A DNA stretch of 64,000 nt from a bacterium (lineage in GTDB: Bacteria; Joyebacterota; Joyebacteria; Joyebacterales; Joyebacteraceae), in contig JALGWI010000008.1 of the NCBI GenBank assembly GCA_025774245.1, positions 2,525 through 66,524 on the forward strand. The letters are read 5' to 3'. The translations under genes and the position numbers were made by a program. How positions within the stretch are numbered: position 1 is the first letter of the stretch; each line of letters opens with the position of its first letter. This document shows positions 21,472 to 41,853 of this stretch, in pieces. The notes under the pieces are model-generated. The model searched no databases. It was not told where the DNA came from and worked only from the letters and a program-made list of their open reading frames with translations.

Positions 21472-21963
21472 AGGGCCCCGGGCCGGCTCTATCGGCCCCA
21501 CAGGAGTGTGCTCCACGATCTCCCCCGGGCGCGCCTGCGCCGGGGGTTTCGATTGTCCGGGAGCGGCTTCCTCTGACGGCGGACCCCGCGCCCCACCGCG
21601 TGTCCCCATGTGCCCCCCGCGTGTCCCCGCCCCCCCCCGCCGGATCCCTCCCCGCGGTCCACGTTCTCCGCAGCCTCCTCCAGGGAGGATCCGCGGCCGG
21701 AAGGCCCGCTTTGTCAGCACTTCCAGCGCGTCGAAACCTCGACGACGCGTCAAAATCTCGACGCTCTCGTAACTTCCCATTCTTCAAGCGGTTAAGGCGA
21801 TACCCCCCCGAGACACCGTACGGACCGTCGAAAACGTGCCATGAGGCTGAATCATCAACCATTTGAGCTCGGCGAGCGCGGCCGTAAACTACAGATGGGC
21901 CACATGTTACATGGAGGCTGTCAGAACATGGCTGAGCGGTCATTCAGCCGTTTCTGGCATGGT

Positions 21964-22185
21964 CTATGCGGTAGTAGGGTATCGGTTGGATTGAAAATCG
22001 AATATGGGAGGAAGAGGCGGCCAGGGTGTTAATAATGCAGGGGGGGCGAGTCCGGTCGCTCTTTGGTTCGCCTCTTTCTTCCTGACTCTCGGCTCCCCGG
22101 AAGATTCGGGGGGATGAAAATAGAGGGTTGTTATGCCGAGCACGGTGAGAGTGAGAATGAAGGTAATGGTCGTGATCCTGCTCAT
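21964..22185 (-). other. Small ORF (73 aa, N-terminal transmembrane helix) with atypical low-GC codon usage inside a low-GC patch. Coding status uncertain.
   Basis: MSRITTITFILTLTVLGITTLYF... AGGTGA lies 9 nt upstream. Codons are ATT/ACT/ATA/TTT-rich, unlike the surrounding GC3-rich genes. Confidence 0.2.
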
Positions 22186-22359
22186 CGGTATCGCATCACC
22201 TGTGCTCGGCTGAGATTACGACAGCTCGCGAAAGCACCCGCAGCTGTAATCGATATAGACAGAGCGGCAGAGCAACGGTCAGCGTCACAGCAAGGAGCAC
22301 ACACTAACAGCACCACCAGCGCGGTTCTTCTCCGCGGGCTCCGTTCCGAGCAGCAACTC

Positions 22360-22376
22360 TGGTCAGCATTTTGCTT
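22360..22376 (+). promoter_or_regulatory. Candidate sigma-54 (-24/-12) promoter upstream of the radical SAM gene
   Basis: TGGTCAGCATTTTGCT: GG and GC at the consensus 12-nt spacing, with a TTGCT -12 element (consensus TGGCACG-N4-TTGCW). A weaker second match TGGCATGGTCTATGCG lies at 21955-21970. Confidence 0.3.
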
Positions 22377-25113: not shown

Positions 25114-25157
25114 CGCCGGGTTGGAGGCGAGTGGGAGTGGGAAGGGAGGTGGTGGGA

Positions 25158-25334
25158 GTGAGGTACCTGAGGATCGCGAACGGGCCGGGAGTGGCCCGTG
25201 CGTGGAGTTCGCGGAGCTCGAAGAAAGACGTCTGTCTGATCGACTACGCGAGCTGCGCGGGATCGGACGTCTGCTGGCTGCTCGACATCGAGAGCGACTG
25301 CATGTCGAACGACGGCTGCATCGTCGACACCTAA
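25158..25334 (+). CDS. RiPP precursor peptide 1 (Cys/Asp-rich, ranthipeptide-like)
   Basis: (M)RYLRIANGPGVARAWSSRSSKKDVCLIDYASCAGSDVCWLLDIESDCMSNDGCIVDT. GTG start 8 nt after GAAGGGAGG; alternative GTG starts at 25149 and 25152. Five Cx3-4D units. Lies immediately 3' of the maturase. Confidence 0.6.
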   Translation: MRYLRIANGPGVARAWSSRSSKKDVCLIDYASCAGSDVCWLLDIESDCMSNDGCIVDT

Positions 25335-25384
25335 TGAGGCCGCACGATGTGCGGGACGGGAATCCGGGATCGGGGAAGGGGGTG

Positions 25385-25570
25385 GTGAGGTTGAAGCACC
25401 TGAGACTCGCCAACGGCGCAGAGGGCGCGGCCGGGACGGTACGAATGGCGCCCAGTCCGTTCCTCTGCTACATCTTCATCGACTGGGGAGACTGCAACTC
25501 GATCGACCAGTGCGGGTTCGACTTCGCGGACTGCGTGAGTGGCGGGGACATCTGTCTCATCGACTACTAG
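25385..25570 (+). CDS. RiPP precursor peptide 2 (Cys/Asp-rich, ranthipeptide-like)
   Basis: (M)RLKHLRLANGAEGAAGTVRMAPSPFLCYIFIDWGDCNSIDQCGFDFADCVSGGDICLIDY. GTG after a GGGGAAGGGGG RBS. An alternative ATG at 25334 overlaps the peptide 1 stop. Five Cx3-5D units. Confidence 0.6.
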   Translation: MRLKHLRLANGAEGAAGTVRMAPSPFLCYIFIDWGDCNSIDQCGFDFADCVSGGDICLIDY

Positions 25571-25646
25571 AGCCGGAGGCGGGAGAGGCACCGGGTTCCC
25601 GGGGGCCGCGGTCGCCGGGGACCCGTGGGGAGGGAGAGGAGGCGCC

Positions 25647-25814
25647 GTGAAGCACCTGAGACTCAAGAACGGACCCGTGTCGGGATCTGCCGCACACGCG
25701 GCACGGGAGTGCTGCGTCCCGTACATCGATTGGGGCGGATGCAACGCGGTCGACTACTGCGGGCAGGACGTCCTGGACTGCCTGGGGGGTGATCTCTGTG
25801 ACCTCGACTACTAG
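25647..25814 (+). CDS. RiPP precursor peptide 3 (Cys/Asp-rich, ranthipeptide-like)
   Basis: (M)KHLRLKNGPVSGSAAHAARECCVPYIDWGGCNAVDYCGQDVLDCLGGDLCDLDY. This is the only in-frame start after the peptide 2 stop and it is preceded by GGAGGGAGAGGAGG. Six Cys, each followed by Asp at +3 to +5. Confidence 0.65.
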   Translation: MKHLRLKNGPVSGSAAHAARECCVPYIDWGGCNAVDYCGQDVLDCLGGDLCDLDY

Positions 25815-27195
25815 ATCGGCGCGGTCCGCGGGCGCGGGTGTGGCTCGCGGGGCCGGCGCGCTCGGCCCACCGGTCGTTCTCGCCGTGCTGCTCGGCGCGC
25901 CGGTCGGAGCGGCGGGCGGGCTTGCCTTCGAGCAGCTGTGGGAGGTACCGCTGGGGCTTCCGTCCCGGGGTACCTCGGACGTGCGCCTCGTCGACTTCGA
26001 CGGGGACGGTCGGACGGAGATCCTGATCGCGCGCTGGCGGCGAGGCGAGCCGGGCGACCTCCTGGTCCTCGATGGGGCGACCGGTAGCGAGAGCTGGCGG
26101 GTCGGCCTCGAGGAGCGGCCGTACGTCGAGACGTGCGACGTCGGTGGGGACGGCAGGATCGAGGTGCTCGCCGCCGTCGGCAACGGACTTCTCGTGATCG
26201 ACGGGGCGTCGGGCGAAACGATCACGACCGTGGGGCTTGCGGGCGAAGCCGGCGCGCTCGCGGTCGGGCACCTCGACGGCGACGAGACCGTGGACGTCGT
26301 CTACGCGGCCGGTGACGAGCGATGCGACGTGCTCGTCGCGCTCGCCGGAGCGGGGGAGAAGGAACTCTGGCGGCGGGAGGCGGAGCCGGCGGAAGGGCGC
26401 TTCGACGAGGGCTTCGGGTTCCTCGTCGCGACCGACGTCGACGGTGACGGTCTGGACGAGGTGCTCGTGACGGAGAACATGAACGTCCTTCTCTGTCTCG
26501 CTTCCGGAGGCGACCTCTCCTGGTCGGCGGTCCTCGGCGAGAAGGGGACGCTCGTTCCGGAGGGCGCCGCGAGCTCCGTTCCGGTCGTCGCGGATCTCCT
26601 GGGCGACGGCGTCAACGAGATCGCCGTCGGCTGCTACGCGGGAGCGCTCGTCGTTCTCGACGGAGCGACCGGCGAGGCGCTCTCGCGGTCGGCCCCGTTC
26701 GGGATCGAATCGCACGCCCGGTACACAAAGAGGGGACGGTTCACTCGTCCCCTCCGCGAGCTCCTGGCGAGGACGGGCGAACCGATCCTCGGGCTCCTGG
26801 CGGTCGATCTGGTCGGTGGGCCCGCGCGCGAACTCGCGTTCGGATGCGCCGACGGCATCTTCTACGCCGTCGATCCTCGCACGGGCACGGAACTCTGGCG
26901 CTACGAGGAGGGAGGCAAGGTCACCGAGCCTGCCGTCGCGCTCGACGCCACGGGCGACGGCGTCGCCGATCTCCTCGTCCGGGACCAGGGGGGAGCGTTC
27001 GTGCTCGACGGGACCGGCGAGGGCGAAGTCGATGTCGGGCCGCTCCCCGACGTGCGCGCCGCCTCGAGCGTCGTCGCGGGCGATGTGAACGCGGACGGCG
27101 TTCTCGATCTGGTCGTCGTGAGCGTGAGGGAGAACCGCGTGGCCGCATGGACGACGGGACTCCCGTGTCCGTCGTCGAACGAGAAGTCGCGATGA
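25789..27195 (+). CDS. Secreted FG-GAP/VCBS-repeat (beta-propeller-like) protein
   Basis: Repeated DxDGDG motifs (DFDGDGRTE, DVGGDGRIE, DVDGDGLDE, DVNADGVLD, DATGDGVAD). Hydrophobic N-terminal segment. The start is uncertain because it overlaps the peptide 3 3' end. Confidence 0.65.
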   Translation: MISVTSTTRSARSAGAGVARGAGALGPPVVLAVLLGAPVGAAGGLAFEQLWEVPLGLPSRGTSDVRLVDFDGDGRTEILIARWRRGEPGDLLVLDGATGSESWRVGLEERPYVETCDVGGDGRIEVLAAVGNGLLVIDGASGETITTVGLAGEAGALAVGHLDGDETVDVVYAAGDERCDVLVALAGAGEKELWRREAEPAEGRFDEGFGFLVATDVDGDGLDEVLVTENMNVLLCLASGGDLSWSAVLGEKGTLVPEGAASSVPVVADLLGDGVNEIAVGCYAGALVVLDGATGEALSRSAPFGIESHARYTKRGRFTRPLRELLARTGEPILGLLAVDLVGGPARELAFGCADGIFYAVDPRTGTELWRYEEGGKVTEPAVALDATGDGVADLLVRDQGGAFVLDGTGEGEVDVGPLPDVRAASSVVAGDVNADGVLDLVVVSVRENRVAAWTTGLPCPSSNEKSR

Positions 27196-27887
27196 GCGCC
27201 GGGGCGACACCTGCCGCGTCGCTCGTCTCTCTCCTGAACGTCCGGAAGTCCTACGGCAAGCGGGGGCGCTCGGTCGAAGCGCTCGCTCCGCTCACGCTCT
27301 CGGTCGGTCGGGGAGAGTCCGTCGCGCTGGTCGGACCGAACGGTGTCGGGAAGACGACGGCGCTCAAGATCGTCGCGACGCTCGTCGAGCCGACGTCCGG
27401 CACGGCGATCGTGTGCGGACACGACGTCGTCGGCGATTCCGGACGGGCGCGCCGCGCCGTCGGCGTGTCCCTCGGGTCTCGCCGCTCGTTCTACTGGAGA
27501 CTGACCACGCGGCACAACCTGTCGTTCTTCGCGAGGCTCAGGGGCGTCCGCGGCGCGAGGATCCCCGCGGAGATCGACCAGGTCGCCCGTGAGATGGGAC
27601 TCGGTCCGAACCTGGACCTTCCGGTCAGACGCCTCTCGCGGGGAGCGCTCGCGAGGCTCTCCGTCGGGCGGGCGATGCTCGGGGATCCCACCGTGCTCCT
27701 TCTCGACGAACCCCTGGCGTCGGTCGATCGCGCCGGGCGAGAGCTCGTCTGGCGCGCGATCGAGAGACGCCTCGCCGCCGGCGCCTGTCTGCTCCTGGCG
27801 ACCCACGAACCGGAGGTGGCGTCCCGGTGCGGCTCGGCCGTGTCGCTCGCCGGAGCTCCCCGCGTGCCGGGGAGGGCGGCGCGATGA
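27192..27887 (+). CDS. ABC transporter ATP-binding protein
   Basis: Walker A GPNGVGKTT, signature LSRGALARL, Walker B LLLDEP. ATGA start-stop overlap with the upstream gene. Confidence 0.8.
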   Translation: MSAGATPAASLVSLLNVRKSYGKRGRSVEALAPLTLSVGRGESVALVGPNGVGKTTALKIVATLVEPTSGTAIVCGHDVVGDSGRARRAVGVSLGSRRSFYWRLTTRHNLSFFARLRGVRGARIPAEIDQVAREMGLGPNLDLPVRRLSRGALARLSVGRAMLGDPTVLLLDEPLASVDRAGRELVWRAIERRLAAGACLLLATHEPEVASRCGSAVSLAGAPRVPGRAAR

Positions 27888-28735
27888 GAGACGACGTTCA
27901 CTGGCTCCGACGCGCGGTCCGCGCGGCGCGGATCCTGTGCGGCGTGGCGTGGGCGTTCGCGTCGCGGAGCGTCGCCACGTACGCGAGCTACCGGGCCAAG
28001 CTCTCGCTCGGGCTGGCGTCGCTCGTCCTGTCGCTCGTGACGTTCTCGTTCGTCGGCCGCGTCGTCTCGAGCGCCGGCTCCGGGTTCGTCGACCGCTACG
28101 GGATGAGCTACTCGTCGTTTGTCATCGTCGGCGTGCTCGTCCACGGCGCGGCCTCCGCCGGGCTCTCGTCGTTCCGCTCGTCGGTGCGCCGCGAGCAGCT
28201 CCAGGGGACGCTCGAGCTCCTCGCCGTCACGCCGGTTCCCGTGCCGCTCGTCCTGTTCCTCTCCGGGCTCGGCGAGATCGCCATCGCCGCGGCGGGCGGC
28301 GCGGCCCTTCTCGCGCTCGCGGCTGTGTTCCTCGGCTTCGAGATCACGCTCTCGCTCCCGCTCGTCGCGGCCGTCGTCCTCTACGGTGTCGCCGCGTGCG
28401 GGATCGGTCTCGCCTCCGCGGGGATCATCCTCGTCTCGAAGGAGGGCGAGCCGCTCTCCTGGGGGTTCGGGGCGATCGCCGGGCTCGTGGGCGGCGTCTA
28501 CTTCCCGGTCGACCTCCTGCCTTCGTGGCTGCGGCGCGTCTCGGTCGCCCTTCCCACCACGCACGCGCTTCGCCTCGCCCGCGCGGGCCTCTCGGGGGCC
28601 GGCGCCGACGCGTCGACGTCCTCGTCGCTCGTCCTCCTCGGGGCCACCGCCGGTCTCGCGCTGGTCGCCGGGTTTCTCGTCCTCCACTGGGGATACCGCT
28701 CCGCGCGGCGCGCGGGGACGCTCGGGGAGTACTAG
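27884..28735 (+). CDS. ABC-2 type transporter permease
   Basis: Six predicted transmembrane helices. Translationally coupled (ATGA) to the ATPase. Confidence 0.75.
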   Translation: MRDDVHWLRRAVRAARILCGVAWAFASRSVATYASYRAKLSLGLASLVLSLVTFSFVGRVVSSAGSGFVDRYGMSYSSFVIVGVLVHGAASAGLSSFRSSVRREQLQGTLELLAVTPVPVPLVLFLSGLGEIAIAAAGGAALLALAAVFLGFEITLSLPLVAAVVLYGVAACGIGLASAGIILVSKEGEPLSWGFGAIAGLVGGVYFPVDLLPSWLRRVSVALPTTHALRLARAGLSGAGADASTSSSLVLLGATAGLALVAGFLVLHWGYRSARRAGTLGEY

Positions 28736-28897
28736 ACGTCCCGCGATCGCGCCGCCCGGCGCACCCGCCCGCTTTCCGCTTGCTCTCGTCTCACGCCGTA
28801 GTGTCTAATGAGAGGATCGCCGCTCGCGCCGGTCGTTCCTCGCGGTGGACGCGTCCCGCGCCGCCGCGATCGCCGCACCCGACTCCGGAGTTCCGCG

Positions 28898-30706
28898 ATG
28901 ACCTCGAAAAGGCCCAGCTATCTCCCGATCGCGTCGATCGTCGTGGGCATCGTCATTCTCGCGATCGCCGTCGGCGTCGCCTCGTTCCGCGACATCGACC
29001 GGGGACGCCAGCAGGTCGCTGACGTGCTCGACCGCCAGGCGAGGTTCGCGATCGGGTCGCTCGGGGCGGCCGTGCGGGCCAGCTTCATGGCGCCGAACTG
29101 GGATCGACCGCACCTCGATCTGATCCTGCAGGGCGCGGCGGGCGACGAGGAGATCAGCCACGTGGCGATCCTCGACGCCGACGGGACGATCGTCGCGCAC
29201 AGCGATCCCGAGCGGGTCGGAACCGTCTGGGAGGGGAGCGGGCTTCTCGAGGCCGTGGCGGACCGGCGGTTCTTCGCAAGTCGCGTCATTCAGACCGACG
29301 GCCTGACGGTCCACGAGTACGTGGCGCCGTTCCCTCCGTTCCCGCGCCGTCTCACCGCGGCCATGATCCGGCGGGCGCCGCACAGGATCCTCGAGCTCGA
29401 GGCCATGTACGGCCGCATCTCGGTGCTCCTGAACAGGCGGGTCGCACCCGGCGAGAACCTCAATCTCTTCATGGTGATCGGCCTCGACTCGACGCAGCTC
29501 GACGCCGGGTTCCTCGCGTCGAGGAACCACACGTTCATGATGTCCGGCATCCTCCTTCTGATCGGCGGCATCGCGATCTACTTCCTCTTCCTGATGGCTC
29601 ACTACCGGTCGGTCAGGACGGCCCTCGCGAACATGCGTTCGTACACGACCAACGTGATCGAGAGCATGGGGAGCGGACTCGTCTCGTTCGACGCCGACGC
29701 GCGTCTCGTCACCGTGAACTCGAGGGCTCGCTCCCTTCTCAGCATTCCCTCGGGCGATGTCGCGGGTACGCCGATCGACGACGTCCTCGCCTTCGAATCG
29801 GACGCCGACAGGGCCGGCGTCTACGGCGTCATGAGCGGCGCCGCGGACACGTTCGAGTCCGAGGCCAGGCTCGTCGCGGGGAGCGACACCATCCCGGTGG
29901 CCCTCGCCGCCTCGTCGCTCAGGGACGAGGCGGGGGAGCGGTCGGGGTCGGTCGTGCTGCTCCAGGACATGCGCGAGATCGAATCGCTCAAGGAGGAGGT
30001 CGCGAGGGAACGCCACCTGGCGTCGCTGGGCAGGCTCGCGGCGGGCGTCGCGCACGAAGTCAGAAACCCCCTGAGCTCGCTCAAGGGTTTCGCCCAGTTC
30101 CTCCGGACCAAGTTCACGCCAGGGTCCCGGGAGGAGCGATACGCCGACATCATGATCGAGGAGGTCGAGCGGCTCGACCGCGTCGTTCAGGAACTCCTCG
30201 ACTTCGCGAAGCCGATCACGCCCGAGAAGAGGGCGGCCGATCTGAACGCGATCGTCGAGGAAGCGCTCTCGCTCGTCGTCGACGACGCCCTCTACAGAGA
30301 GGTCGAGATCGCGCGGGAGCTGGGCGACGGTCTCCCGCACGTGTTCGTCGACCCCGGGCAGGTTAAGCAGGCGCTTCTCAACATCCTCCTGAACGGACTC
30401 GAGTCGATGGGCGACGACGGCGGGACGCTCACCGTGGCGACGTCGGCCGATGGCGGCTCGGGTGGCAGCGTCGCGATCGCCGTCTCCGACACGGGAGCCG
30501 GCATGACGGACGAGGAGATCGCGAAGCTCTACGAGCCGTTCTACACGACGAAGCCGTCGGGCACGGGTCTCGGCCTCACGATCGTGTCGAGGATCATCGA
30601 GCAGAACGACGGTCACGTCCGCGTCGCGAGCGCGAAGGGCGAGGGAACGACGTTCACGATCGAGCTGCCGGCGGCGTCGGGACGCGGCGCGCGGCCGGCC
30701 GCCTGA
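28898..30706 (+). CDS. Sensor histidine kinase (NtrB/AtoS-like) with a periplasmic sensing domain, PAS, HisKA and HATPase
   Basis: Two N-terminal transmembrane helices flank a ~190-aa loop. H-box HEVRNPLSSLKGF. ATP-binding motifs (DTGAGMTDEE, GTGLGL). Confidence 0.8.
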   Translation: MTSKRPSYLPIASIVVGIVILAIAVGVASFRDIDRGRQQVADVLDRQARFAIGSLGAAVRASFMAPNWDRPHLDLILQGAAGDEEISHVAILDADGTIVAHSDPERVGTVWEGSGLLEAVADRRFFASRVIQTDGLTVHEYVAPFPPFPRRLTAAMIRRAPHRILELEAMYGRISVLLNRRVAPGENLNLFMVIGLDSTQLDAGFLASRNHTFMMSGILLLIGGIAIYFLFLMAHYRSVRTALANMRSYTTNVIESMGSGLVSFDADARLVTVNSRARSLLSIPSGDVAGTPIDDVLAFESDADRAGVYGVMSGAADTFESEARLVAGSDTIPVALAASSLRDEAGERSGSVVLLQDMREIESLKEEVARERHLASLGRLAAGVAHEVRNPLSSLKGFAQFLRTKFTPGSREERYADIMIEEVERLDRVVQELLDFAKPITPEKRAADLNAIVEEALSLVVDDALYREVEIARELGDGLPHVFVDPGQVKQALLNILLNGLESMGDDGGTLTVATSADGGSGGSVAIAVSDTGAGMTDEEIAKLYEPFYTTKPSGTGLGLTIVSRIIEQNDGHVRVASAKGEGTTFTIELPAASGRGARPAA

Positions 30707-30723: not shown

Positions 30724-32067
30724 ATGGACGCCAGGAGCATGAGGATCCTCGTCGTCGACGACCAGTCGAGTGTGCGGCAGCTTCTCAAGGCCGTGCTCGA
30801 GGAGGACGGACACGAGATCGACACGGCGCCCGACGGGGAGAAGGCGCTCGAGGCCGTCGCCGCGGGCTACCACGACCTCGTCGTGATGGACATCCGGATG
30901 CCGGGGATCGACGGCGTCGAGGCGCTCGAGCGGATGCGCGCGTCGAGCCCTCAGACGGCCGTCGTCATGATGACCGCGTACGCCTCGGTCGAGACCGCGG
31001 TGCGGGCCATGAAGCTCGGCGCCTTCGACTACGTCACGAAGCCGATCGACATCGACGAGGTCCGGGCCGTCGTCGCGCGGTTCATCGAGTCGTCCGGCCC
31101 TCCCGACGCCGTCGAGGAGGCGCCGCCCAAGCCGTCGAGGGAGATCATCGGGGCGAGCGAGACGTTCCGGGAGATGCTCTCGGTCGTCCACAGGGTCGCC
31201 GAGAGCGACGCGAGCGTTCTCCTTCTCGGCGAGAGCGGGACCGGCAAGGAGGTCATCGCGAAGGAGATCCACCGCGCCGGCCCCCGCGCCCGGAAGCCGT
31301 TCGTCGCCATCAACTGCTCTGCGATCCCGGAGGGTCTCCTCGAGAGCGAGCTCTTCGGGCACGAGAAGGGCGCGTTCACCGGTGCGGTCCGTCTGAAGAA
31401 GGGACGCTTCGAGCTGGCCAACGGCGGCACGGTTTTCCTCGACGAGATCGGCGACATGTCGCGGGCGCTCCAGGCGAAGCTCCTGAGGTTCCTCCAGGAC
31501 CACACGCTGTCGAGGGTCGGAGGAGGGCAGGACATCACGGTTGACGTCCGCGTGGTCGCGGCGACGAACCGCGATCTCGAGCGCGCGGTGGCGGACGGCG
31601 ACTTCCGCCAGGACCTCTACTTCCGGCTGAACGTCGTCACGATCACGATCCCGCCGCTCCGCGATCGCCAGGAAGACGTGCCGCTCCTGGTGGAGCACTT
31701 CCTGAAGCTCCACGCGCCGGAACGGGGCAAACCGAAGAAGATGTCGCCGCGCGCGATGCGCATCGCCATGAACTACGACTGGCCCGGGAACGTCCGCGAG
31801 CTCGAGAACGCCGTCCAGAGGGCGGTCGTCCTCTCGCGCGGAGAGACGATCTTCCCCGAGCACCTGCCCGCGAAGGTGCAGGCGACGGGCGGCGATCCCG
31901 GGGCTGAGACGCTCGAGGTGGGGAAGACCATCCGGGAGGTCGAGCGGGACATCATCGAGAAGACACTCAAGCAGACCGACGGGAACCGCACGAAGGCATC
32001 CGAGATCCTCGGCATCTCGCGGCGGACCCTCCAGAACAAGATCAAGGAGTACAAGATCGACCTCTGA
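30724..32067 (+). CDS. Sigma-54-dependent response regulator (NtrC/AtoC family)
   Basis: REC domain (VVDDQSSVRQLL...D). AAA+ domain (GESGTGKEVIAKEIH, ESELFGHEKGAFTGA). C-terminal Fis HTH. Confidence 0.9.
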   Translation: MDARSMRILVVDDQSSVRQLLKAVLEEDGHEIDTAPDGEKALEAVAAGYHDLVVMDIRMPGIDGVEALERMRASSPQTAVVMMTAYASVETAVRAMKLGAFDYVTKPIDIDEVRAVVARFIESSGPPDAVEEAPPKPSREIIGASETFREMLSVVHRVAESDASVLLLGESGTGKEVIAKEIHRAGPRARKPFVAINCSAIPEGLLESELFGHEKGAFTGAVRLKKGRFELANGGTVFLDEIGDMSRALQAKLLRFLQDHTLSRVGGGQDITVDVRVVAATNRDLERAVADGDFRQDLYFRLNVVTITIPPLRDRQEDVPLLVEHFLKLHAPERGKPKKMSPRAMRIAMNYDWPGNVRELENAVQRAVVLSRGETIFPEHLPAKVQATGGDPGAETLEVGKTIREVERDIIEKTLKQTDGNRTKASEILGISRRTLQNKIKEYKIDL

Positions 32068-32408
32068 GCGGCGGCTCCGGGACCGCGCTCCGCGGCGACG
32101 GGGAGCGGCCTTCGGAGGTGCGAAGATTCTGCGCAGTGGGTCCTCCCATCTGGGAAGGACCTGCGCAGCCGGACGCGTCGATCGCTCCCGGAAGCGCGTC
32201 GCTCGCGATCCTGCGCGCGCGTAACCCGCTGAATCCTCGGCGGTTGCACGATCATCAGAAAAGGGTGCGGCGGTTGTCCGGAGCTGGCATGCCGGTTGCA
32301 CAAAACGGGGAGTGTGGGAACGCTCCCGGCGGACCGAAAGAGGACGAACGGAGAAACGGTCACGGGGAGCACAAGACGGGAGAGTCGAAGGAAGGAAAGG
32401 GGAGAACC

Positions 32409-33209
32409 ATGAGACGCAGAAAAGCTCTGATCGCGGTCATCATAGCGCTGGCAGTTGCCACCGCGATTGCGGTTCCCGCGGTCGCGCAGAAGCGAGTAGA
32501 GGTCAGGCGCATGGAGTGCATGGACGGCCCCGGGATGGGCATGGGGCGCCCCGGCATGGGTAAGGGGCATCCCGGCATGGGCACGGGGCACGGCCCCGCG
32601 CTGACCTCCGAGCAGCAGGAGCAGGCCGACGCCATCCGGGAGAAGTACGATGACCAGCGCGTGGAGCTCGTCAACAGGCTGAAGGCGATGGCGATCGAGG
32701 CCGACGATGCCTTCGACGGTGACGCGCCGGACTTCGCCGCGCTCGAGAAGCAGATCGACGAGGCGGCAAAGGTCAGAGCCGACATGGCGAAGCTCAAGCT
32801 CAGGATGCACAAGGAGATCCGCGGTATTCTCACCGAGGACCAGCGCACCATCTTCGATCACGGCCTGTCCTCGAAGTTTGGCCGCGGTCTCATGATGGGC
32901 GGCCAGGGACACGGCGGCATGCGGGGCGACATGGGCCGCGGTTGCCGCGGCATGAGAGGCGGCGGGCGCGCCAGCTGCGGCATGATGGGCGGCATGGGTC
33001 CCGGAAGCTGCGGCATGATGGGCGGCTTCGGCATGGGCGGTGAGCCCATGATCTGGGAAGAGAAGACCGAGGACGGTACGCGTATCCGCAAGATGATCTT
33101 CATCCCCGAGGGGGCGGAGCTCCCCGAGGGGCACGAGATGCACGAGATGCACGAGATGTACTTCGAGACGGATCACGACGGCGACTCGGAGGGGCACAGC
33201 TCCCTCTGA
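32409..33209 (+). CDS. Periplasmic Spy/CpxP-family (LTxxQ motif) protein with Met/Gly/His-rich low-complexity segments
   Basis: Signal peptide. LTSEQQEQADAIREKY and LTEDQRTIFDHG motifs. GMGMGRPGMGKGHPGMGTGHG, MMGGQGHGGMRGDMG...GMMGGMGPGSCGMMGGFGMGG and HEMHEMHEM segments. Confidence 0.7.
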   Translation: MRRRKALIAVIIALAVATAIAVPAVAQKRVEVRRMECMDGPGMGMGRPGMGKGHPGMGTGHGPALTSEQQEQADAIREKYDDQRVELVNRLKAMAIEADDAFDGDAPDFAALEKQIDEAAKVRADMAKLKLRMHKEIRGILTEDQRTIFDHGLSSKFGRGLMMGGQGHGGMRGDMGRGCRGMRGGGRASCGMMGGMGPGSCGMMGGFGMGGEPMIWEEKTEDGTRIRKMIFIPEGAELPEGHEMHEMHEMYFETDHDGDSEGHSSL

Positions 33210-33221
33210 TGCGCGCTCCGT

Positions 33222-33256
33222 GAGGGAGGGGGTCGGGGGATTCCCCGACTCCCTCC
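33222..33256 (+). terminator. GC-rich hairpin downstream of the Spy-like gene (candidate terminator)
   Basis: GAGGGAGGGGGTCGGGG-gatt-CCCCGACTCCCTC extended stem. No strong U-tract follows. Confidence 0.4.
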
Positions 33257-33346: not shown

Positions 33347-33376
33347 TTGTCAGCCCGAGCGAGCCTTCCATATACT
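33347..33376 (+). promoter_or_regulatory. Candidate sigma-70 promoter for the NCS2 permease gene
   Basis: TTGTCA, 18-nt spacer, TATACT, ~60 nt upstream of the ATG at 33437. Confidence 0.4.
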
Positions 33377-33436: not shown

Positions 33437-34762
33437 ATGATCGAACGTCTCTTCAAGCTCAGCGAGAACGGAACGACGGTCCGCACCGAGCTCCTCGCCG
33501 GCGCGACGACCTTCATGACGATGGCCTACATCGTCTTCGTGAACCCGAGCATCCTCTCCGCTCCGGGCGGAGCCGCGATGGACTTCAGGGCGGTGATGGC
33601 CGCGACGTGCATCGCGTCCGCGCTCGCCACACTCCTCATGGCGTTCCTCGCGAACTACCCGATCGCGCTCGCGCCCGGCATGGGCCTCAACGCTTACTTC
33701 AGCTTCACCGTCTGCGGCCAGATGGGCGTCCCGTGGGACGTGGCCCTCGGGATCGTCTTCATCTCGGGCGTCGTCTTCACGATCCTTACGGTCGCGCGCG
33801 TGCGCGAGCTCATCGTCACCGCGATCCCCGCGCCACTGAAGTACGCGACCGCCGCCGGCATCGGTCTCTTCATCGCGTTCCTCGGCCTCAAGGACTCCGG
33901 GATCATCGCGTCCCATCCAGCCGCGTTCCTCACGCTCGGCACGCTCAAGGAGCCGCCCGTTCTCCTGGCGCTCTTCGGGCTGGCGGTGACCGCGGTCCTC
34001 CTGGCGGCGAAGGTCAGGGGCGCGATCTTCTGGGGCATCCTCGCGACGGGGGCCGCGGGCCTCGTGACCGGCATCGTGACGTTCACAGGCGTCTTCGCCC
34101 TTCCGACGCTCGGCCCGACCTTCCTCAAGATGAGGCCGGCGGCGGCGCTCAGGCTCGAGTACCTGACGCCGATCTTCGTCCTCCTCTTCTTCGACATGTT
34201 CGACACCGTCGGGACGCTCATCGGGGTCGGGGAGCGGGCGGGGTTCATGAAGGACGGCAAGATGCCGCGCGTCAACCAGGCGCTCGTGTCCGACTCGGTC
34301 GGCACGATGGTGGGAGCGGCCGTCGGCACGTCGACGACGACGAGCTACGTCGAGAGCGTGGCGGGCGTCTCGGCAGGCGGACGCACGGGCCTCGCGAACC
34401 TTGCGACCGCGGCGCTCTTCCTGATGGCGCTCTTCTTCTCGCCGCTGGCGGAGATGTTCGGCGGCGGGCACGAGATCGGCACCGGCGTCATCCTCCATCC
34501 CATCACGGCTCCGGCGCTCATCGTCGTCGGCTGCCTCATGATGAAGTGCGTCACGAAGATCGACTGGGACAACTACTCCGACGCGATCCCGGCCTTCCTC
34601 ACGATGATCGTGATGCCGCTGACCTCGAGCATCGCCCACGGTCTCGCGATCGGGTTCATCAGCTACCCGATCATCAAGGCGCTCTCGGGGAAGGCCCGCG
34701 AGGTCCACTGGCTGGTTTATTGCCTTGCCGCTCTGTCCATCCTGAGGTATATACTTCTGTAG
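33437..34762 (+). CDS. NCS2-family nucleobase permease (AzgA/PbuG-like adenine/guanine/hypoxanthine permease)
   Basis: 441-aa polytopic protein with conserved AzgA-like blocks (TFMTMAYIVFVNP, GLNAYF, FDMFDTVGTLIG). Confidence 0.85.
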   Translation: MIERLFKLSENGTTVRTELLAGATTFMTMAYIVFVNPSILSAPGGAAMDFRAVMAATCIASALATLLMAFLANYPIALAPGMGLNAYFSFTVCGQMGVPWDVALGIVFISGVVFTILTVARVRELIVTAIPAPLKYATAAGIGLFIAFLGLKDSGIIASHPAAFLTLGTLKEPPVLLALFGLAVTAVLLAAKVRGAIFWGILATGAAGLVTGIVTFTGVFALPTLGPTFLKMRPAAALRLEYLTPIFVLLFFDMFDTVGTLIGVGERAGFMKDGKMPRVNQALVSDSVGTMVGAAVGTSTTTSYVESVAGVSAGGRTGLANLATAALFLMALFFSPLAEMFGGGHEIGTGVILHPITAPALIVVGCLMMKCVTKIDWDNYSDAIPAFLTMIVMPLTSSIAHGLAIGFISYPIIKALSGKAREVHWLVYCLAALSILRYILL

Positions 34763-34870
34763 TGATGTGACCGGAATCCGGCGCGCCCGTCCAGGCTCGT
34801 CAGCCTTCGGATCGAGCGCGTCGTTCCTGCCCTATCGGGTGCCCCCACGTTTGACCGGGAGCCGCCGTCC

Positions 34871-35194
34871 GTGCCTCGCAGGTTCGTTCAGCTCCAGACG
34901 ACCATCGACGATCGGGACAGAGCGGAGGAACTGATCCGCGAAGTCGTCGAGAGGCGTCTGGCCGCCTGCGGCCAGATCGTCGGGCCGATCGAGAGCATCT
35001 ACCGCTGGAAGGGCTCGATCGAGACGGCGACGGAGTGGCTCTGTCTCTTCAAGACGAGGGCGGCGCTCGCGGGAGCGCTCGAGGAGTTCATCCTCGAGTG
35101 GCACCCCTACGAGGTTCCCGAGATCGTCGTCCTCGAGACGGTGAGGGTATCGGATGACTACGGGAAGTGGATCAGAAACGAGACGAGCGGCTAG
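34871..35194 (+). CDS. cutA: Divalent-cation tolerance protein CutA
   Basis: 107 aa. CutA1 signature (LAACGQI...SIYRWKG...ETVLLFKT). Confidence 0.8.
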   Translation: MPRRFVQLQTTIDDRDRAEELIREVVERRLAACGQIVGPIESIYRWKGSIETATEWLCLFKTRAALAGALEEFILEWHPYEVPEIVVLETVRVSDDYGKWIRNETSG

Positions 35195-35213
35195 CCGCGC
35201 GCTTCCTCGCGCG

Positions 35214-35852
35214 ATGCTCATCGTGCTCGCAGCGGCCGTCGTGCTCGGCTCGGTGTGCCGGGCGGCCGCCGAGGAGGAGAGGAGCGGCGACCGCAGATAT
35301 CGCTCGAAGTCCTACCGACGTCAGGGCGCCGAGGTCGGCGTGGTCTTCCCACGCTACGTCTTTCCAACGGGAGACGGCTACGCGGACGAATACGAGATCG
35401 ACGGCGGGATCGGGTTCGGGTTCAGTCTCATGTTCGCGGTCACCGACGTGATCGCTCTCGAGGGAGGGATGCTCCAGACGAACCACAAGACCCCGGACGG
35501 CCAGAAGTGGGACATGGACGAGGTCTACATCGGGCTCCGCTACATCATCCTCCACGATGTGGCGTGGCAGCCGTTCGTCGGACTCGGAGGATGCCGGCTG
35601 GCGCTCGAGACCGACCAGGAAGCGCTCGCTCCCCTGGAGTTCAGACGGATCAACGGGTTCGGCGGTGTCGTCTACGCGGGCGTCGACTACATCATGTCGA
35701 GCCGGTGGACCCTGAACTTCCGGATGGACTACCACCTCCTGAGCTACGCGGACGAGACCATCGGGATCCAGAGCGACAAGCTCGATCCCAAGCTCGACGG
35801 CAGCACCCTCGGATTCTCGCTCGGGCTCTCGTACCGGGTACCGATGTTCTAG
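35214..35852 (+). CDS. Small outer-membrane beta-barrel protein (OmpW/OmpA-like porin family)
   Basis: Signal peptide. Alternating beta-strand pattern ending with the C-terminal LGLSYRVPMF, consistent with an OMP signal that ends in Phe. Confidence 0.6.
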   Translation: MLIVLAAAVVLGSVCRAAAEEERSGDRRYRSKSYRRQGAEVGVVFPRYVFPTGDGYADEYEIDGGIGFGFSLMFAVTDVIALEGGMLQTNHKTPDGQKWDMDEVYIGLRYIILHDVAWQPFVGLGGCRLALETDQEALAPLEFRRINGFGGVVYAGVDYIMSSRWTLNFRMDYHLLSYADETIGIQSDKLDPKLDGSTLGFSLGLSYRVPMF

Positions 35853-35903
35853 CCGGCCGCGCGGAAGCGTCCGGCGCGCACTGCGTTCGAAACGGGAGGA
35901 CAC

Positions 35904-36323
35904 ATGCTCGAAGCGAAGGTCCGGTGGGTCGACGGTTTCCGATTCGACGCCACGGACGCGGACGGCCGCGAGCTCGCGCTCGACGCGAGCGTTGCCGGGG
36001 GCGGGGAGGGCAAGGGCATGAGCCCCGCGCTCCTTCCGCTCATGGGGCTCGCCGGCTGCACCGGTATTGACACCCTGGAGATCCTCCAGAAGATGCGCGA
36101 GCCGGTGGCAGGGCTCGAGGTCAAGGTGTCCTCGAGGAAGAAGGAGGGCATCCCTTCCGGCTACGACGGCATAGAGGTCGAGTACGTCGTCACCGGGAAG
36201 GGGATTTCGCGGGAGAAGGTCGAGAAGGCCGTCAGGCTCTCGGAGGAGAAGTACTGCACGGTCTCGCAGGTGCTCGCGAAGGCGTCGAAGATCACGCACA
36301 CCATCACGATCGTGGAAGAGTAG
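35904..36323 (+). CDS. OsmC/Ohr family peroxiredoxin-like protein
   Basis: 139 aa. GLAGCTGIDTLEIL and EKYCTVSQ motifs with the conserved Cys pair. Confidence 0.8.
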   Translation: MLEAKVRWVDGFRFDATDADGRELALDASVAGGGEGKGMSPALLPLMGLAGCTGIDTLEILQKMREPVAGLEVKVSSRKKEGIPSGYDGIEVEYVVTGKGISREKVEKAVRLSEEKYCTVSQVLAKASKITHTITIVEE

Positions 36324-36352
36324 CGCCCGGAGGGGCGTTCAGGGAGACCGAC

Positions 36353-37723
36353 ATGAAGGATCGTCTGGAACAGGTGGTTGCGAAGTTCGCCTCGCAGTGC
36401 GACTACCTCGAGGTTCACGCGGAGGAGACCGAGGAGTCACGGGTCACGTTCAGCGGCCCGAGGCTCGAGGACCTCGGGAAGAAGGTGGATTTCGGCGGGA
36501 ACGTGCGCGCTCTCTACAAGGGGGGCTGGGGGTTCGCGTCGTTCAACTCGGTCGACCGGATCGGCGAGTTCGCGCAGAACGCGATCGATCAGGCGAAGCT
36601 CGTCGGAGCGGAGACGAGCGAGTTGGCGAAGACGGATCCGGTGCGCGACGACGTGCTGCTCGATCTCAAGAACGACCCGCGCACGATCTCGCTCGAGAAG
36701 AAGGTCGAGATCCTGAAGGCATACAACGAGCAGGCGCTCGGGTATCACGAGCGCATCGTCAGCTCGTCGACGAGGTACTTCGACCGGAACCGGAAGTTCT
36801 GGTTCGCCAACAGCGAGGGGAGTCTCGTCTACCAGGAGCGCGTCGACATCGGTGGCATGGTTGCGCCGATCGCGATGAAGGGCGGAGACTCGCAGTACTT
36901 CGGGGTGCCGTTCGGGTCGAGCGACGACTTCAACGTCGCGCTCGGGCTAGAGAAGCGGATCGACGAGGTCTGCGAGATCTCGCTCGGCAAGCTCGAGGCT
37001 CCGAAGGTCAAGGGCGGCGAGTACACCGTCATCCTCGATCCGCGCCTCGGCGGGACGTTCATCCACGAAGCCTTCGGCCACCTCTCGGAGGCCGACAACG
37101 TCTACGAGGACAAGAATCTCCAGAAGGTCATGCAGCTCGGTCGCGAGTTCGGCAGGCCGTTCCTGAACGTCTACGACACGGGACTCGACAAGGGGCACCG
37201 CGGCTATCTCGTCTACGACGACGAGGGCGTCCCCACCGAGAAGACCTACCTCCTCCGCGAGGGCAAGCTCGTCGGGAGGCTCCACTCGCGCGAGACCGCG
37301 GGGAAGATGGGCGAGCGCCCGACCGGAAACGCGCGCCAGATCGACTACCGCCACGAGCCGGTCTGCCGGATGCGGAACACGTGCATCGAGAACGGTGAAG
37401 CGAGCTTCGACGAGATGCTCGCCGGCATCGACCTCGGCGTCTACTGCGTCTCCGCGCAGGGCGGCCAGACGAACGGCGAGATGTTCACGTTCACGGCGGG
37501 GAACGCCTACATGATCAGGGACGGCAAGCTCGCAGAGATGGTCCGCGACGTGACCCTGACGGGGAACGTGTTCGTCACGCTCAAGAACATCGACGCGCTC
37601 GGGAACGACCAGGCCGCGCACGACGGCCCGGGCGGCTGCGGCAAGGCCGGGCAGTTCCCGCTCCAGACGAGCCACGGGGCGCCGCACGTGCGGATCCGGA
37701 ACGTCGTGATCGGAGGTGAGTAA
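36353..37723 (+). CDS. tldD: TldD-family metalloprotease
   Basis: HEAFGHLSEAD (HExxxH) motif. 456 aa. Confidence 0.85.
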   Translation: MKDRLEQVVAKFASQCDYLEVHAEETEESRVTFSGPRLEDLGKKVDFGGNVRALYKGGWGFASFNSVDRIGEFAQNAIDQAKLVGAETSELAKTDPVRDDVLLDLKNDPRTISLEKKVEILKAYNEQALGYHERIVSSSTRYFDRNRKFWFANSEGSLVYQERVDIGGMVAPIAMKGGDSQYFGVPFGSSDDFNVALGLEKRIDEVCEISLGKLEAPKVKGGEYTVILDPRLGGTFIHEAFGHLSEADNVYEDKNLQKVMQLGREFGRPFLNVYDTGLDKGHRGYLVYDDEGVPTEKTYLLREGKLVGRLHSRETAGKMGERPTGNARQIDYRHEPVCRMRNTCIENGEASFDEMLAGIDLGVYCVSAQGGQTNGEMFTFTAGNAYMIRDGKLAEMVRDVTLTGNVFVTLKNIDALGNDQAAHDGPGGCGKAGQFPLQTSHGAPHVRIRNVVIGGE

Positions 37724-39068
37724 CGTGAGGGAGATCATCGAAAAGGCGATGGCGAAGGGCGCTTCGAGCTGCGAGGTCTTCTATCTCAACTCCCTCAGGA
37801 CCTCCGTCGACTTCGAGACCGGGCGCCTGAAGGGCGTCGGGCGCACCGAGGAGAGAGGCGCGACGCTCAGGCTTGTGAAGGACGGGCGGATGGGGCTCGC
37901 GACGAGCACGAAGCTGGACGAAGTCGACCGGCTGGTCGACGACGCGCTGGCCACCTCAGCCTTCGGCGGGAAGGCGGAGATCGAATTCGCCGGCGCCGCG
38001 ACGCTGCCCGGCGTCGAGACGGCACACGACGACGTCGAGAACCTCGACATCGACCGCGTGATCGAGGAGTCGCAGGCGGAGATCGCGAGGATCCTCGACT
38101 ACGAGGGTGAGATCAACGCCGAGGCGTCGACGCTCCGGGACGTCCAGGAGATCCGCGTGCTCACGTCGGAGGGGTTCGACGGGAGCTTCAAGCGGACGCT
38201 CTACCGGCACCACGCCGGCGGGCGGCTCATTGAGGGCGACAACATGCTGGACGCCTACGCCTACTTCGGCGGGACGAACCTCGACGCGCGACGCGACATC
38301 ATCGCCGAGGTGATCGAGGACTTCGAGAACGGGCGCACGAACGTCGGCGTGTCGACGGGGCCGACGAACGTGCTCTTCACGCCGAGGGCGGTCGCCGACG
38401 TCCTCATGACGCTCTATCTCGGCGTCTCCGGCGCGATGGTCGACAGGAAGATCTCGCCCCTGGCGGGGAAGCTCGGCCAGACCGTCTTCGACGAGCGCGT
38501 CACGATCTACGACGATGGGCTCGCGAAGGGCGCGTACGAGTCGGCGCCGTTCGATGACGAGGGCGTGCCGATGCAGCGCACACCGGTCTTCGAGTCCGGC
38601 GTGCTCAAGAACTTCCTGACGGACCTCCGCACGGCCCGGAAGCTCGACCTGCCCCTGACGGGCAACGCGCTCCGCGCCAAGCGGCTCGTGCTGACGAAGG
38701 ACCTGGGCAAGGTGCCCTCTCCCGAGGTCACGAACTGGCGGATGGAGGGCGGGACGAAGTCGAGCGACGAGCTCCTGGCGGGCATGAAGGAGGGCGTCAT
38801 CATCGACTCCATCATGGGCATCCTCATGAGCAATCTCACTGCCGGCGACTTCTCCGGCAACGTCGCGTACGGGCTCAAGGTCGAGAACGGGAAGACCGTC
38901 GGCCGCGTGAAGGACACGATGGTCTCGGGGAACGTCTACAAGCTCTTGAGGGACAACCTGCTCGATCTCTCGAGCGACACCAAGCTCACGGGGAGGCTCG
39001 GCGTCTTCGGGACGCACCACTTCCCGTATATGCTTCTGAAGGACGTGCCGATCTCGACGAAGGGGTAG
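37716..39068 (+). CDS. pmbA: PmbA/TldE-family protein (TldD partner)
   Basis: 450-aa TldD/PmbA-fold protein lacking HExxxH. Overlaps the tldD stop. Confidence 0.8.
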   Translation: MSNVREIIEKAMAKGASSCEVFYLNSLRTSVDFETGRLKGVGRTEERGATLRLVKDGRMGLATSTKLDEVDRLVDDALATSAFGGKAEIEFAGAATLPGVETAHDDVENLDIDRVIEESQAEIARILDYEGEINAEASTLRDVQEIRVLTSEGFDGSFKRTLYRHHAGGRLIEGDNMLDAYAYFGGTNLDARRDIIAEVIEDFENGRTNVGVSTGPTNVLFTPRAVADVLMTLYLGVSGAMVDRKISPLAGKLGQTVFDERVTIYDDGLAKGAYESAPFDDEGVPMQRTPVFESGVLKNFLTDLRTARKLDLPLTGNALRAKRLVLTKDLGKVPSPEVTNWRMEGGTKSSDELLAGMKEGVIIDSIMGILMSNLTAGDFSGNVAYGLKVENGKTVGRVKDTMVSGNVYKLLRDNLLDLSSDTKLTGRLGVFGTHHFPYMLLKDVPISTKG

Positions 39069-41328: not shown

Positions 41329-41760
41329 ATGGTGGAGCGCCCCACATACGACGAGATCGAGCACACGGCTGACGTCGGCGTCGCGCTCAGCGCACCCGAC
41401 CTGCGGTCGGCCTTCGAGCTTGCGGCCGCATCGATGTTCGACCTCATGTTCGATCTCGACAGCATCGGATCGTCGTGGCGGCGCGAGATCAGGGTCGAGG
41501 GCCGCGAGGGCGACCTCGAGAACCTCCTGATCCGCTGGCTCGCAGAACTCCTCTTCATCTTCGAGACGGAGCGCGTCCTGCTCTCGACGTTCGCCGTCGC
41601 CCGGCTCGAGGACGGGGTCGTCGAGGCCCTCGTGGTCGGCGAGCCGTACGACGCGGCGAGGCACGCCGTGAAGGTCGAGATCAAGGCGGCGACCTACCAC
41701 GAACTCACGATCGAGGAGACCGACGGCGGCTGGACGGTGCGCGTGATCTTCGACACGTAG
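41329..41760 (+). CDS. Archease (RtcB activator)
   Basis: YDEIEHTADVGV N-terminal archease signature. 143 aa. Immediately upstream of rtcB. Confidence 0.8.
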   Translation: MVERPTYDEIEHTADVGVALSAPDLRSAFELAAASMFDLMFDLDSIGSSWRREIRVEGREGDLENLLIRWLAELLFIFETERVLLSTFAVARLEDGVVEALVVGEPYDAARHAVKVEIKAATYHELTIEETDGGWTVRVIFDT

Positions 41761-41853
41761 GCGGCGGGCACCGACGGCGGGGACGGTCCCGCGACGGTCC
41801 CGCGGACGGCCGCACGGACGCCCGCGCGGCGCCGGCACCGGCAACACGAGGGG

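Follow-up and report, generated by a model that had tools for sequence, protein, structure and literature searches.

The 64,000-nucleotide stretch analysed here (the window: positions 2,525 to 66,524 of contig JALGWI010000008.1, assembly GCA_025774245.1) carries a sensor histidine kinase gene, a gene for a sigma-54 response regulator and, directly after these, a gene for a methionine- and glycine-rich protein of the LTXXQ family, which we call the ZraP-like gene. An initial annotation, made from the sequence alone, had described its product as a Spy/CpxP-like periplasmic protein and a candidate metal-buffering chaperone. We followed up this proposal by analysing the family and fold of the protein, the conservation of its promoter and of an enhancer-like site, synteny and the composition of its tails, all of which are established at the level of sequence. 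It is probable, in our judgement, that the product is a periplasmic accessory protein of the ZraP type and that the gene is the dedicated sigma-54-dependent output of the adjacent pair, the three genes together making up a module of the ZraPSR type. The coordinates of the individual features are collected in Table 1.

The initial annotation had recommended a search for a sigma-54 promoter 5' of the gene, and such a promoter was found 109 bp 5' of the ATG. It is the sole exact match to the consensus in the 64-kb window, and 100 shuffles of the sequence yielded none, while a relaxed pattern that tolerated two mismatches was uninformative (9 matches in the window versus 9.5 expected). All 17 loci that span this region (16 plus L020, a locus discussed below) likewise have an exact sigma-54 promoter just 5' of the homologous gene; these 17 include two distant relatives that have no adjacent two-component system and keep the promoter. 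A candidate enhancer, or upstream activating sequence (UAS), is positioned 166 bp 5' of the promoter in the window, and, apart from the window, each of the eight distinct orthologous loci has an enhancer-like copy 165-178 bp 5' of its promoter. At L011 and L013, where a 1.5-kb gene has been inserted between the regulator and the promoter, the enhancer-like site stays with the promoter. Second enhancer-like sites are found at +42 bp in L007 and L017, and a weaker second candidate is present in the window as well. Scanning the window with a position weight matrix (PWM) of the motif placed the best score at 32116 and the second at 32148, the first of these sites being a member of the training set, and high scores were confined to the region before the ZraP-like gene. 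A promoter and an enhancer-like site accompany the gene in every orthologous locus. The earlier pairing of it with a sigma-54 two-component system is supported, and the gene is the apparent target of that system. Judged from these sequence elements, its place in a sigma-54 regulon is well supported, and the ZraP-like gene appears to be a dedicated sigma-54 target of the kinase/regulator pair.

Further matches to the enhancer motif were recorded. The best one in the window outside the ZraP-like promoter region, CCATGCGAAGAACCTGCTCAGCA at 54580-54602 on the minus strand (16.5 bits), falls in or near an unannotated open reading frame (ORF; 54181-54684, minus strand), with no sigma-54 promoter match nearby. 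At L017, positions 1890-1950 hold two enhancer-like sites 41 bp apart (PWM scores of 17.8 and 21.8 bits) between the ABC-2 permease gene and the kinase gene, which is a hint that the kinase/regulator operon of that lineage regulates itself; in the window nothing comparable stands before the kinase gene.

Table 1. Features of the ZraP-like locus (window coordinates; aa, residues of the 266-aa protein)
Feature	Position	Strand	Description and basis
Sensor histidine kinase gene	28808-30706	+	start probably 28898; Pfam and NCBIfam
Sigma-54 response regulator gene	30724-32067	+	REC, AAA+ (GAFTGA), HTH_8; NtrC/AtoC/ZraR type
Candidate enhancer (UAS) site 1	32119-32135	+	TGCGAAGATTCTGCGCA; imperfect TGCGCA-N5-TGCGCA palindrome; putative regulator-binding site
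Candidate enhancer site 2, weaker	32151-32167	+	TGGGAAGGACCTGCGCA; 32 bp 3' of site 1; PWM 18.3 bits
Sigma-54 promoter	32285-32300	+	TGGCATGCCGGTTGCA; -24 GG and -12 GC elements; exact TGGCAY-N5-TTGCW match
Ribosome-binding site, purine-rich	32394-32404	+	GGAAAGGGGAG; 4 nt 5' of ATG; by sequence reading
ZraP-like LTXXQ-family gene	32409-33209	+	ATG 32409, stop 33207-33209, 266 aa; Pfam, profile and fold evidence
Sec-type signal peptide, aa 1-26	32409-32486	+	MRRRK, 17-residue hydrophobic stretch, AVA/Q cleavage site; by inspection
N-terminal Met/Gly/His tract, aa 27-62	32487-32594	+	17% Met, 31% Gly, 2 His, 1 Cys; composition
Helical core, aa 63-160	32595-32888	+	LTSEQ at aa 65-69, LTEDQ at aa 141-145; AlphaFold2, profile and Foldseek
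Met/Gly/Cys/Arg tail	32889-33044	+	composition; 33-bp repeat; disordered in AlphaFold2 model
C-terminal extension, aa 213-266	33045-33206	+	predicted beta-hairpin, HEMHEMHEM, acidic His-containing end; net charge -11
GC-rich stem-loop, 14 bp	33225-33256	+	directly 3' of stop codon; no T-run; RNA fold
Downstream block	33437-39068		xanthine/uracil-family permease, CutA1, outer-membrane beta-barrel, OsmC, TldD, PmbA

In the kinase, which is called at 602 aa by JGI, a periplasmic sCache_3_2-like domain lies between two transmembrane segments, and PAS, HisKA and HATPase_c domains come after these. A kinase about 50% identical stands in synteny at every orthologous locus, and an alignment of the orthologous periplasmic domains contains an invariant LLDxDG...HSD motif and a single invariant His. 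The regulator matches Pfam Sigma54_activat with an E-value of 1.4e-71. Its best NCBIfam model is AtoC (516 bits), with NtrC and ZraR (441 bits; cut-off 760) also matched, all of them below the equivalog cut-offs. The kinase scores 290 bits against the ZraS cut-off of 479, its best-scoring stretch covering the kinase core only, and AtoS scores higher but also below its cut-off. Across the Eisenbacteria loci the regulator is 71-74% identical, whereas the ZraP-like protein is 36-53% identical.

The start of the ZraP-like gene was assigned to the ATG at 32409. Third-position GC is coding-like over the core, the tail and the C-terminal extension (0.87-0.93, with 0.93 in the extension) and drops to a non-coding-like 0.67 in the open frame 5' of 32409, and in orthologues an AGGAGA/GGGAGA equivalent of the ribosome-binding site precedes the ATG. 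A longer ORF opening at 32118 was rejected as the gene on account of its non-coding-like third-position GC and because the N-termini of homologues align with 32409. The same alignment led us to reject the public gene call P0001 (306 aa, ATG at 32289), whose start lies within the -24 element and is probably wrong because it is placed inside the sigma-54 promoter. The call for the L005 orthologue carries an N-terminal extension before the conserved start and is likely mis-called too. Four independent metagenome assemblies hold the identical protein. Since a separate sigma-70-like promoter (33347-33376) stands before the next gene and a hairpin follows the stop codon, the ZraP-like gene looks monocistronic. 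The hairpin may serve as a terminator or stabiliser; a scan for canonical terminators found no site 3' of the gene, and the 96-nt stretch that holds the hairpin folds unexceptionally relative to shuffles (z -1.4). The idea of a riboswitch or structured leader was dropped, as the 5' untranslated region folds only mildly better than shuffles (z -2.06) and no Rfam family reaches its gathering score anywhere in the window.

The encoded protein was then compared with known families. Two LTxxQ motifs had been the ground for its original placement in the Spy/CpxP/ZraP family, and both are present (Table 1). Comparison with family models gave a divided result: Pfam LTXXQ (PF07813) is passed marginally at 25.5 bits against a cut-off of 24.3, while Metal_resist and the NCBIfam Spy and CpxP models stay below their cut-offs, with the scores that are weighed further on. 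Nearly all homologues carry a precomputed PF13801 (Metal_resist) match. A search of the PDB with the single sequence returned noise only, but a profile built from 16 homologues retrieved Salmonella ZraP (3LAY) as its best match (E 1.4e-10), followed by Spy (7.5e-10 and 9.5e-9), CnrX/NccX (about 1e-5) and CpxP (4.5e-3). An AlphaFold2 (AF2) model contains a four-helix core with helices at aa 67-79, 81-103, 109-138 and 143-160, so that the two LTxxQ motifs sit at the starts of the helices that begin at aa 67 and aa 143; block means of the predicted local distance difference test (pLDDT) are 86-97 over aa 61-150 and 74 over aa 151-160. When the model was searched against the PDB with Foldseek, the top 38 matches were all CnrX, CpxP, Spy, STV or ZraP, with target template modelling (TM) scores of 0.5-0.83, the highest belonging to ZraP. 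The E-values were only around 1e-2, which is expected because the structures are short helical hairpins. By sequence profile and predicted fold, membership of the helical core in the Spy/CpxP/ZraP/CnrX superfamily is well supported, and the family placement in the initial annotation stands on Pfam LTXXQ, the ZraP and Spy profile matches and the AF2/Foldseek comparison.

Around this core the protein is organised as a series of low-complexity segments. Export to the periplasm is predicted by inspection, and the MKSKKR... starts of homologues line up with the N-terminus. The N-terminal tract, which is disordered in the AF2 model and has a counterpart in homologues, includes the stretch GMGMGRPGMGKGHPGMGTGHG at aa 42-62 that had been singled out previously; the Met/Gly repeat region of about 60 residues with Cys, noted at the same time, corresponds to aa 153-212 and is 18% Met and 42% Gly with 3 Cys. 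The mature protein contains about 10% Met overall and the tracts 17-18%, to be compared with averages of 3% Met and 10% Gly in eight neighbouring proteins. Base composition offers no explanation for the Met enrichment, because the Met codon is AT-rich in a window of 67% G+C. In-frame tandem DNA repeats underlie the tracts, with units of 21 bp (three copies) in the N-terminal tract and 33 bp (3.5 copies) in the tail, with a further 9-bp unit in three copies, and the protein holds four MxxM, one MxM and three HxM spacing motifs. The HEMHEMHEM sequence is present at aa 242-250 (DNA 33132-33158) as first described, but it is not strictly terminal, since 16 residues follow it. In the same C-terminal extension a beta-hairpin is predicted with moderate confidence at aa 214-231 (AF2 pLDDT 65-74). 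Searching all syntenic loci with tblastn revealed no counterpart of the extension. The sole representative in the global library that aligns across it is P0041 (49% identity), which has an acidic His-containing end of its own; P0049 and P0057 finish in acidic segments that look hairpin-like.

We next considered the conservation of the tails. A word-indexed search of 5.8 billion proteins yielded 34 relatives. The close homologues (36-54% identity) share a common architecture of a signal peptide, a GMGMG-type tract, PAFTxEQQ, a core with LLDDDQ..LFDRG and a tail of 40-100 residues, most of them having FTxEQ and LLDDDQ in place of the LTxxQ motifs. Their tails consist of GMMGG/GMRGG with scattered Cys and His and usually finish in an MPWCPFADD-acidic end. 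The repeat unit varies by lineage, being (GMAGAKGC)x4 in L007 and GMRGGMRGGMRG in others. So that the test of tail composition would not be circular, a search of 1.84 billion representatives was made with the core alone (aa 63-160), which gave 280 matches at E <=1e-3 and 28 at E <=1e-10. A tail was counted as Met/Gly-rich at a minimum of 10% Met and 25% Gly, and only proteins with a C-terminal tail of at least 15 residues were counted. By this measure the tail was Met/Gly-rich in 40 of the 47 core-selected proteins scoring at least 60 bits, in none of the 16 in the 45-60 bit band and in 13 of 83 weaker matches. At the sequence level, the Met/Gly-rich region is conserved in composition within the close subfamily. 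An LTXXQ match and Met-rich tails in 40 of 47 close homologues were thus obtained on the two points on which the initial annotation had made its proposal depend. No experimental work on this Met/Gly-tailed subfamily was found in the literature searched.

A scan of GTDB species representatives located relatives mainly in metagenome-assembled genomes (MAGs) of Candidatus Eisenbacteria. Judging by synteny and sequence identity, the window too probably derives from this phylum. The module as a whole (promoter, enhancer-like site, kinase, regulator and ZraP-like gene) occurs together in eight distinct orthologous loci, drawn from six Candidatus Eisenbacteria MAGs, one unclassified MAG and one metagenome contig, and the three genes are adjacent in all orthologous loci that reach far enough upstream. 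The order that is kept, with gaps and insertions in some loci, runs from an ABC-2 permease through kinase, regulator and ZraP-like gene to the xanthine/uracil permease, CutA1, the outer-membrane barrel, OsmC, TldD and PmbA, and Eisenbacteria loci of sufficient extent retain all or some of this downstream block. As listed, the barrel ORF of the window (35154-35852) overlaps the CutA1 gene (34871-35194); in the JGI call the barrel has a later start. Some Eisenbacteria MAGs have a second gene after the ZraP-like gene (L014, 6519-7184), which is lipoprotein-like with LExEQ/LTSEQ and a Gly/Arg-rich end and may be an LTXXQ paralogue without a counterpart in the window.

Among characterised proteins, ZraP offers the closest parallel. 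The enterobacterial protein is a zinc-dependent chaperone of the periplasm whose expression depends on sigma-54 and ZraR and which represses ZraSR (PMC4987338; PMC10848872), and PMC8836040, citing Petit-Hartlein 2015, reports that the E. coli protein binds Cu(II) more tightly than Zn(II). ZraP and the window protein are both periplasmic, by prediction in the latter case, and share an N-terminal His/Gly/Met stretch before the first LTxxQ and a helical hairpin core; the 3LAY sequence itself ends in a Gly/Met/Cys/His-rich tail, ...GAGMGYGGCGGYGGGYHRGGGHMGM. Both genes have a sigma-54 promoter that answers, or in the window by its sequence would answer, to a neighbouring kinase and NtrC-family regulator. 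The overall plan of the window protein is ZraP-like because it combines a signal peptide, a short His/Gly/Met tract, an LTxxQ core and a Gly/Met/Cys/His tail. It differs from ZraP in possessing an extra C-terminal helix with the second LTxxQ, longer and Met-richer tracts, and the extension with the beta-hairpin and acidic HEM repeat, and the genes are arranged in tandem (kinase, regulator, ZraP-like) whereas those of ZraPSR are divergent. Spy (3O39, 3OEO) resembles the window protein in its two LTxxQ motifs, in the length of its core and in a conserved His that aligns with Spy H96, as well as in envelope-stress induction, which for the window gene is suggested by analogy. The matched crystallised Spy sequences, at only 97-138 residues, could hardly accommodate a long tail. 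Spy is not known to carry Met/Gly-rich tails, and its control is by Cpx/Bae, not by sigma-54. The core of the window protein may be described as Spy-length with ZraP-type ends.

Other members of the superfamily are more remote. CpxP (3QZC, 3ITF), the inhibitor of the CpxA kinase, belongs to the same fold family and is likewise a periplasmic accessory protein encoded beside its two-component system; its sequence similarity is weak by both profile E-value and NCBIfam score, and it is not known to have Met/Gly tails. CpxR is an OmpR-type regulator and is not known to depend on sigma-54. CnrX and NccX, periplasmic Ni/Co sensors of Cupriavidus and metal-binding members of the Metal_resist family, share the helical hairpin fold and gave the top Foldseek E-values. 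CnrX sits anchored in the membrane, and its signal goes to an anti-sigma factor and an extracytoplasmic function (ECF) sigma factor. A CnrX-like sensor of this kind was considered for the window protein and dropped, as no anti-sigma/ECF pair is adjacent; a sigma-70-family gene is located at 59553, 26 kb away. Outside the enterobacteria and in another phylum, the sigma-54 regulator DVU3381 of D. vulgaris controls DVU3384, annotated as an envelope stress response gene (PMC4641369), and by annotation the DVU3382-DVU3381/DVU3384 arrangement is similar to the present one in placing a nearby gene under a sigma-54 two-component regulator. Met-rich segments that handle Cu(I), in CusF, CopC, PcoB-type repeats and the Met-rich domain of CueO, resemble the tracts in Met density, in MxxM/MxM/HxM spacings and in their periplasmic location, a likeness that is compositional only. 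Searches of Pfam, NCBIfam and the PDB for CusF, CopC and PcoB homology gave no match at E-values of up to 0.1-10, and the folded part is an LTXXQ helical hairpin, so that membership of these families was rejected; of the comparison made in the initial annotation, the likeness in composition was retained.

Putting these elements together, we propose that the kinase would detect a periplasmic signal through its Cache-like domain, a signal that only by analogy may be taken as envelope or metal stress. The phosphorylated regulator would then bind the tandem TGCGNA-N5-TGCGCA sites at 32119-32167 and activate sigma-54 RNA polymerase at 32285-32300, giving rise to a monocistronic mRNA. The signal peptide would direct export of the product, which would fold as a Spy/ZraP-like helical hairpin and probably oligomerise. 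Through its disordered Met/Gly(+His/Cys) tracts and its acidic, His- and Met-containing C-terminus the protein might bind metals and/or unfolded envelope proteins, with Cu(I)/Ag(I) and possibly Zn(II)/Cu(II) as the candidate metals. From the behaviour of related proteins we infer that the tracts may bind Cu(I) or Zn and that the protein may have chaperone activity, and by analogy with ZraP and CpxP it would feed back on the kinase, probably damping it.

Several observations weigh against assigning the protein to a ZraP-type, metal-linked module. Its score for Pfam Metal_resist (PF13801, the ZraP/CnrX family) is 24.2 bits against a cut-off of 29.2, and its NCBIfam scores, 24.8 bits for Spy against a cut-off of 174 and 14.9 bits for CpxP, are far below the equivalog cut-offs. 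The last core helix with the second LTxxQ aligned to Spy and not to the sequence of the ZraP structure. By their sequence scores the kinase and the regulator are not ZraS/ZraR equivalogs, and the periplasmic domain of the kinase, aligned across orthologues, lacks a conserved cluster of Cys, Met or His residues that might identify it as a metal sensor. Met coordinates Zn poorly. Nothing in the window puts a metal-efflux gene under the promoter of the ZraP-like gene, and the copper-type P1B ATPase that the window does encode (47064-49613, minus strand; two N-terminal HMA domains; TIGR01511 633 bits against 397) lies 14 kb 3' of the ZraP-like gene on the other strand. Genes for LemA and a peptidase of family M48 (45099-47001) adjoin this ATPase gene.

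The hints of copper are indirect, and this ATPase in the window counts among them. P0022, a distant Met/Gly-tailed relative (L020, 4229-7340), has an exact sigma-54 promoter 37 bp 5' of its gene, which is followed by a SHOCT gene and then by a copper-type P1B ATPase gene (TIGR01511 646 bits against 397; no HMA domain). The position of P0022 beside this ATPase is a weak hint of a role in copper handling. A second exact sigma-54 match is present in L020 at 877-892. A third hint is that CueO recruits Cu(I) through its Met-rich domain (PMC11494321).

The remainder of the window contains several other systems. An island at 22621-28735 resembles a system for a ribosomally synthesised and post-translationally modified peptide (RiPP). 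It contains a radical S-adenosylmethionine (radical-SAM)/SPASM maturase that is QhpD/PapB-like and below equivalog cut-offs, and includes three small ORFs (25137-25334, 25349-25570 and 25647-25814) that have in common the leader motif HLR[LI][AK]NG, the island's small ORFs having Cys/Asp-rich cores ending in C[LD][IL]DY. The island continues with an FG-GAP beta-propeller (25789-27195) and then an ATP-binding cassette (ABC) ATPase and an ABC-2 permease (27147-28735), and looks like a thioether peptide system of the ranthipeptide type. 5' of it lies a gene for a second sigma-54 activator (18379-21471; 1030 aa; tetratricopeptide (TPR) repeats, AAA+, HTH_8), and two GG-N10-GC candidates, TGGCATGGTCTATGCG and TGGTCAGCATTTTGCT (21955-21970 and 22358-22373), were picked out by eye in the 1.1-kb gap that precedes the radical-SAM gene. 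Farther away, the intervals 689-10136 and 41329-43317 encode Rnf/Nqr-type subunits, a 2Fe-2S/FAD/NAD reductase, polyprenyl synthase, ApbE and an FMN-binding protein, together with Archease and RtcB (an RNA ligase pair) followed by a PolX/PHP protein.

Other explanations for the ZraP-like protein were weighed against the ZraP-type reading. It could be a plain Spy-like, ATP-independent chaperone in which the tracts are flexible client-binding or spacer segments with no metal role. The core has the full Spy length including the second LTxxQ helix, and its profile matches Spy about as readily as ZraP (7.5e-10 against 1.4e-10). The tracts are predicted to be disordered, and among orthologues their sequence and repeat unit are free to vary while composition is kept, which fits a physico-chemical role better than site-specific binding. 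Cys and His nevertheless recur in the tails, most orthologues conserve the PWCPF/acidic end, and the window protein has HEMHEMHEM and an acidic His-containing end. One Met/Gly-tailed relative, moreover, adjoins a copper-type ATPase, and ZraP, with the same type of tail, is metal-dependent in the literature. On balance we regard a chaperone with no part in metal handling as unlikely. We see far less reason to believe that the protein is a sacrificial periplasmic Met sink for oxidants such as HOCl and peroxides, one that would resemble MrpX and be repaired by a periplasmic methionine sulfoxide reductase (Msr). The Met-rich peptide MrpX provides a precedent (PMC4436054); the mature window protein, predicted to be exported, is rich in Met, and an OsmC-family gene belongs to the conserved downstream block. 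Yet a Pfam scan of the predicted window proteins found no MsrP/MsrQ-like or Msr-type domain, and MrpX-type systems, according to other papers, are under ECF sigma/anti-sigma control and not, as here, a sigma-54 two-component system. For a Met sink, a folded LTXXQ chaperone core would be superfluous, and the Cys/His content and the acidic His end would go unexplained; we hold this explanation to be very unlikely.

The neighbouring island gives rise to a different kind of explanation, namely that the module is part of the radical-SAM RiPP system, with the kinase sensing the exported peptide and the ZraP-like protein protecting the envelope or binding the peptide. An ABC-2 permease gene does lie directly 5' of the kinase gene in most loci that reach far enough (L005/L006, L011, L014, L015 and L017, and L010 with an insertion), and TldD/PmbA peptidase genes are conserved downstream. 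L007, however, keeps the kinase, regulator, ZraP-like gene and downstream block without ABC or RiPP genes; the enhancer-like motif and the strict sigma-54 promoter are found only before the ZraP-like gene; the island has its own TPR/sigma-54 activator; and more distant Met/Gly-tailed relatives occur in unrelated contexts. We therefore give this explanation very little credence. The initial annotation had suggested that the protein links the RiPP island to metal stress, a claim that comes down to synteny and that the island's own activator and the composition of L007 speak against. A broader version would treat the whole conserved block, from the radical-SAM Cys/Asp-rich peptides to TldD/PmbA, as one unit, in which the kinase senses an exported thioether peptide or peptide-metal complex and the induced ZraP-like protein acts as a high-capacity sponge for Cu(I)/soft metals and clients, protecting the producer's envelope and resetting the kinase. 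Such a unit is highly improbable in our estimation, and if it did exist it would amount to a peptide-linked metal-stress circuit of an undescribed kind.

We accordingly favour the reading of the ZraP-like protein as a ZraP-type accessory protein under the dedicated control of its neighbouring kinase and regulator. The ZraP-like module does not overturn current understanding. What it does define is a subfamily of limited size, with some 28 cluster representatives at E <=1e-10, in which the Gly/Met tails of the ZraP type have been expanded into repeat-driven tracts of 50-120 residues; if it is true that these tracts are metal sponges, this would explain the role of the enigmatic tails of ZraP itself. 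The conserved promoter and enhancer-like site supply a concrete and testable regulatory map. With them, the logic of ZraPSR, in which a sigma-54 two-component system governs an apparent periplasmic LTXXQ output, is extended to Candidatus Eisenbacteria, represented here by MAGs only.

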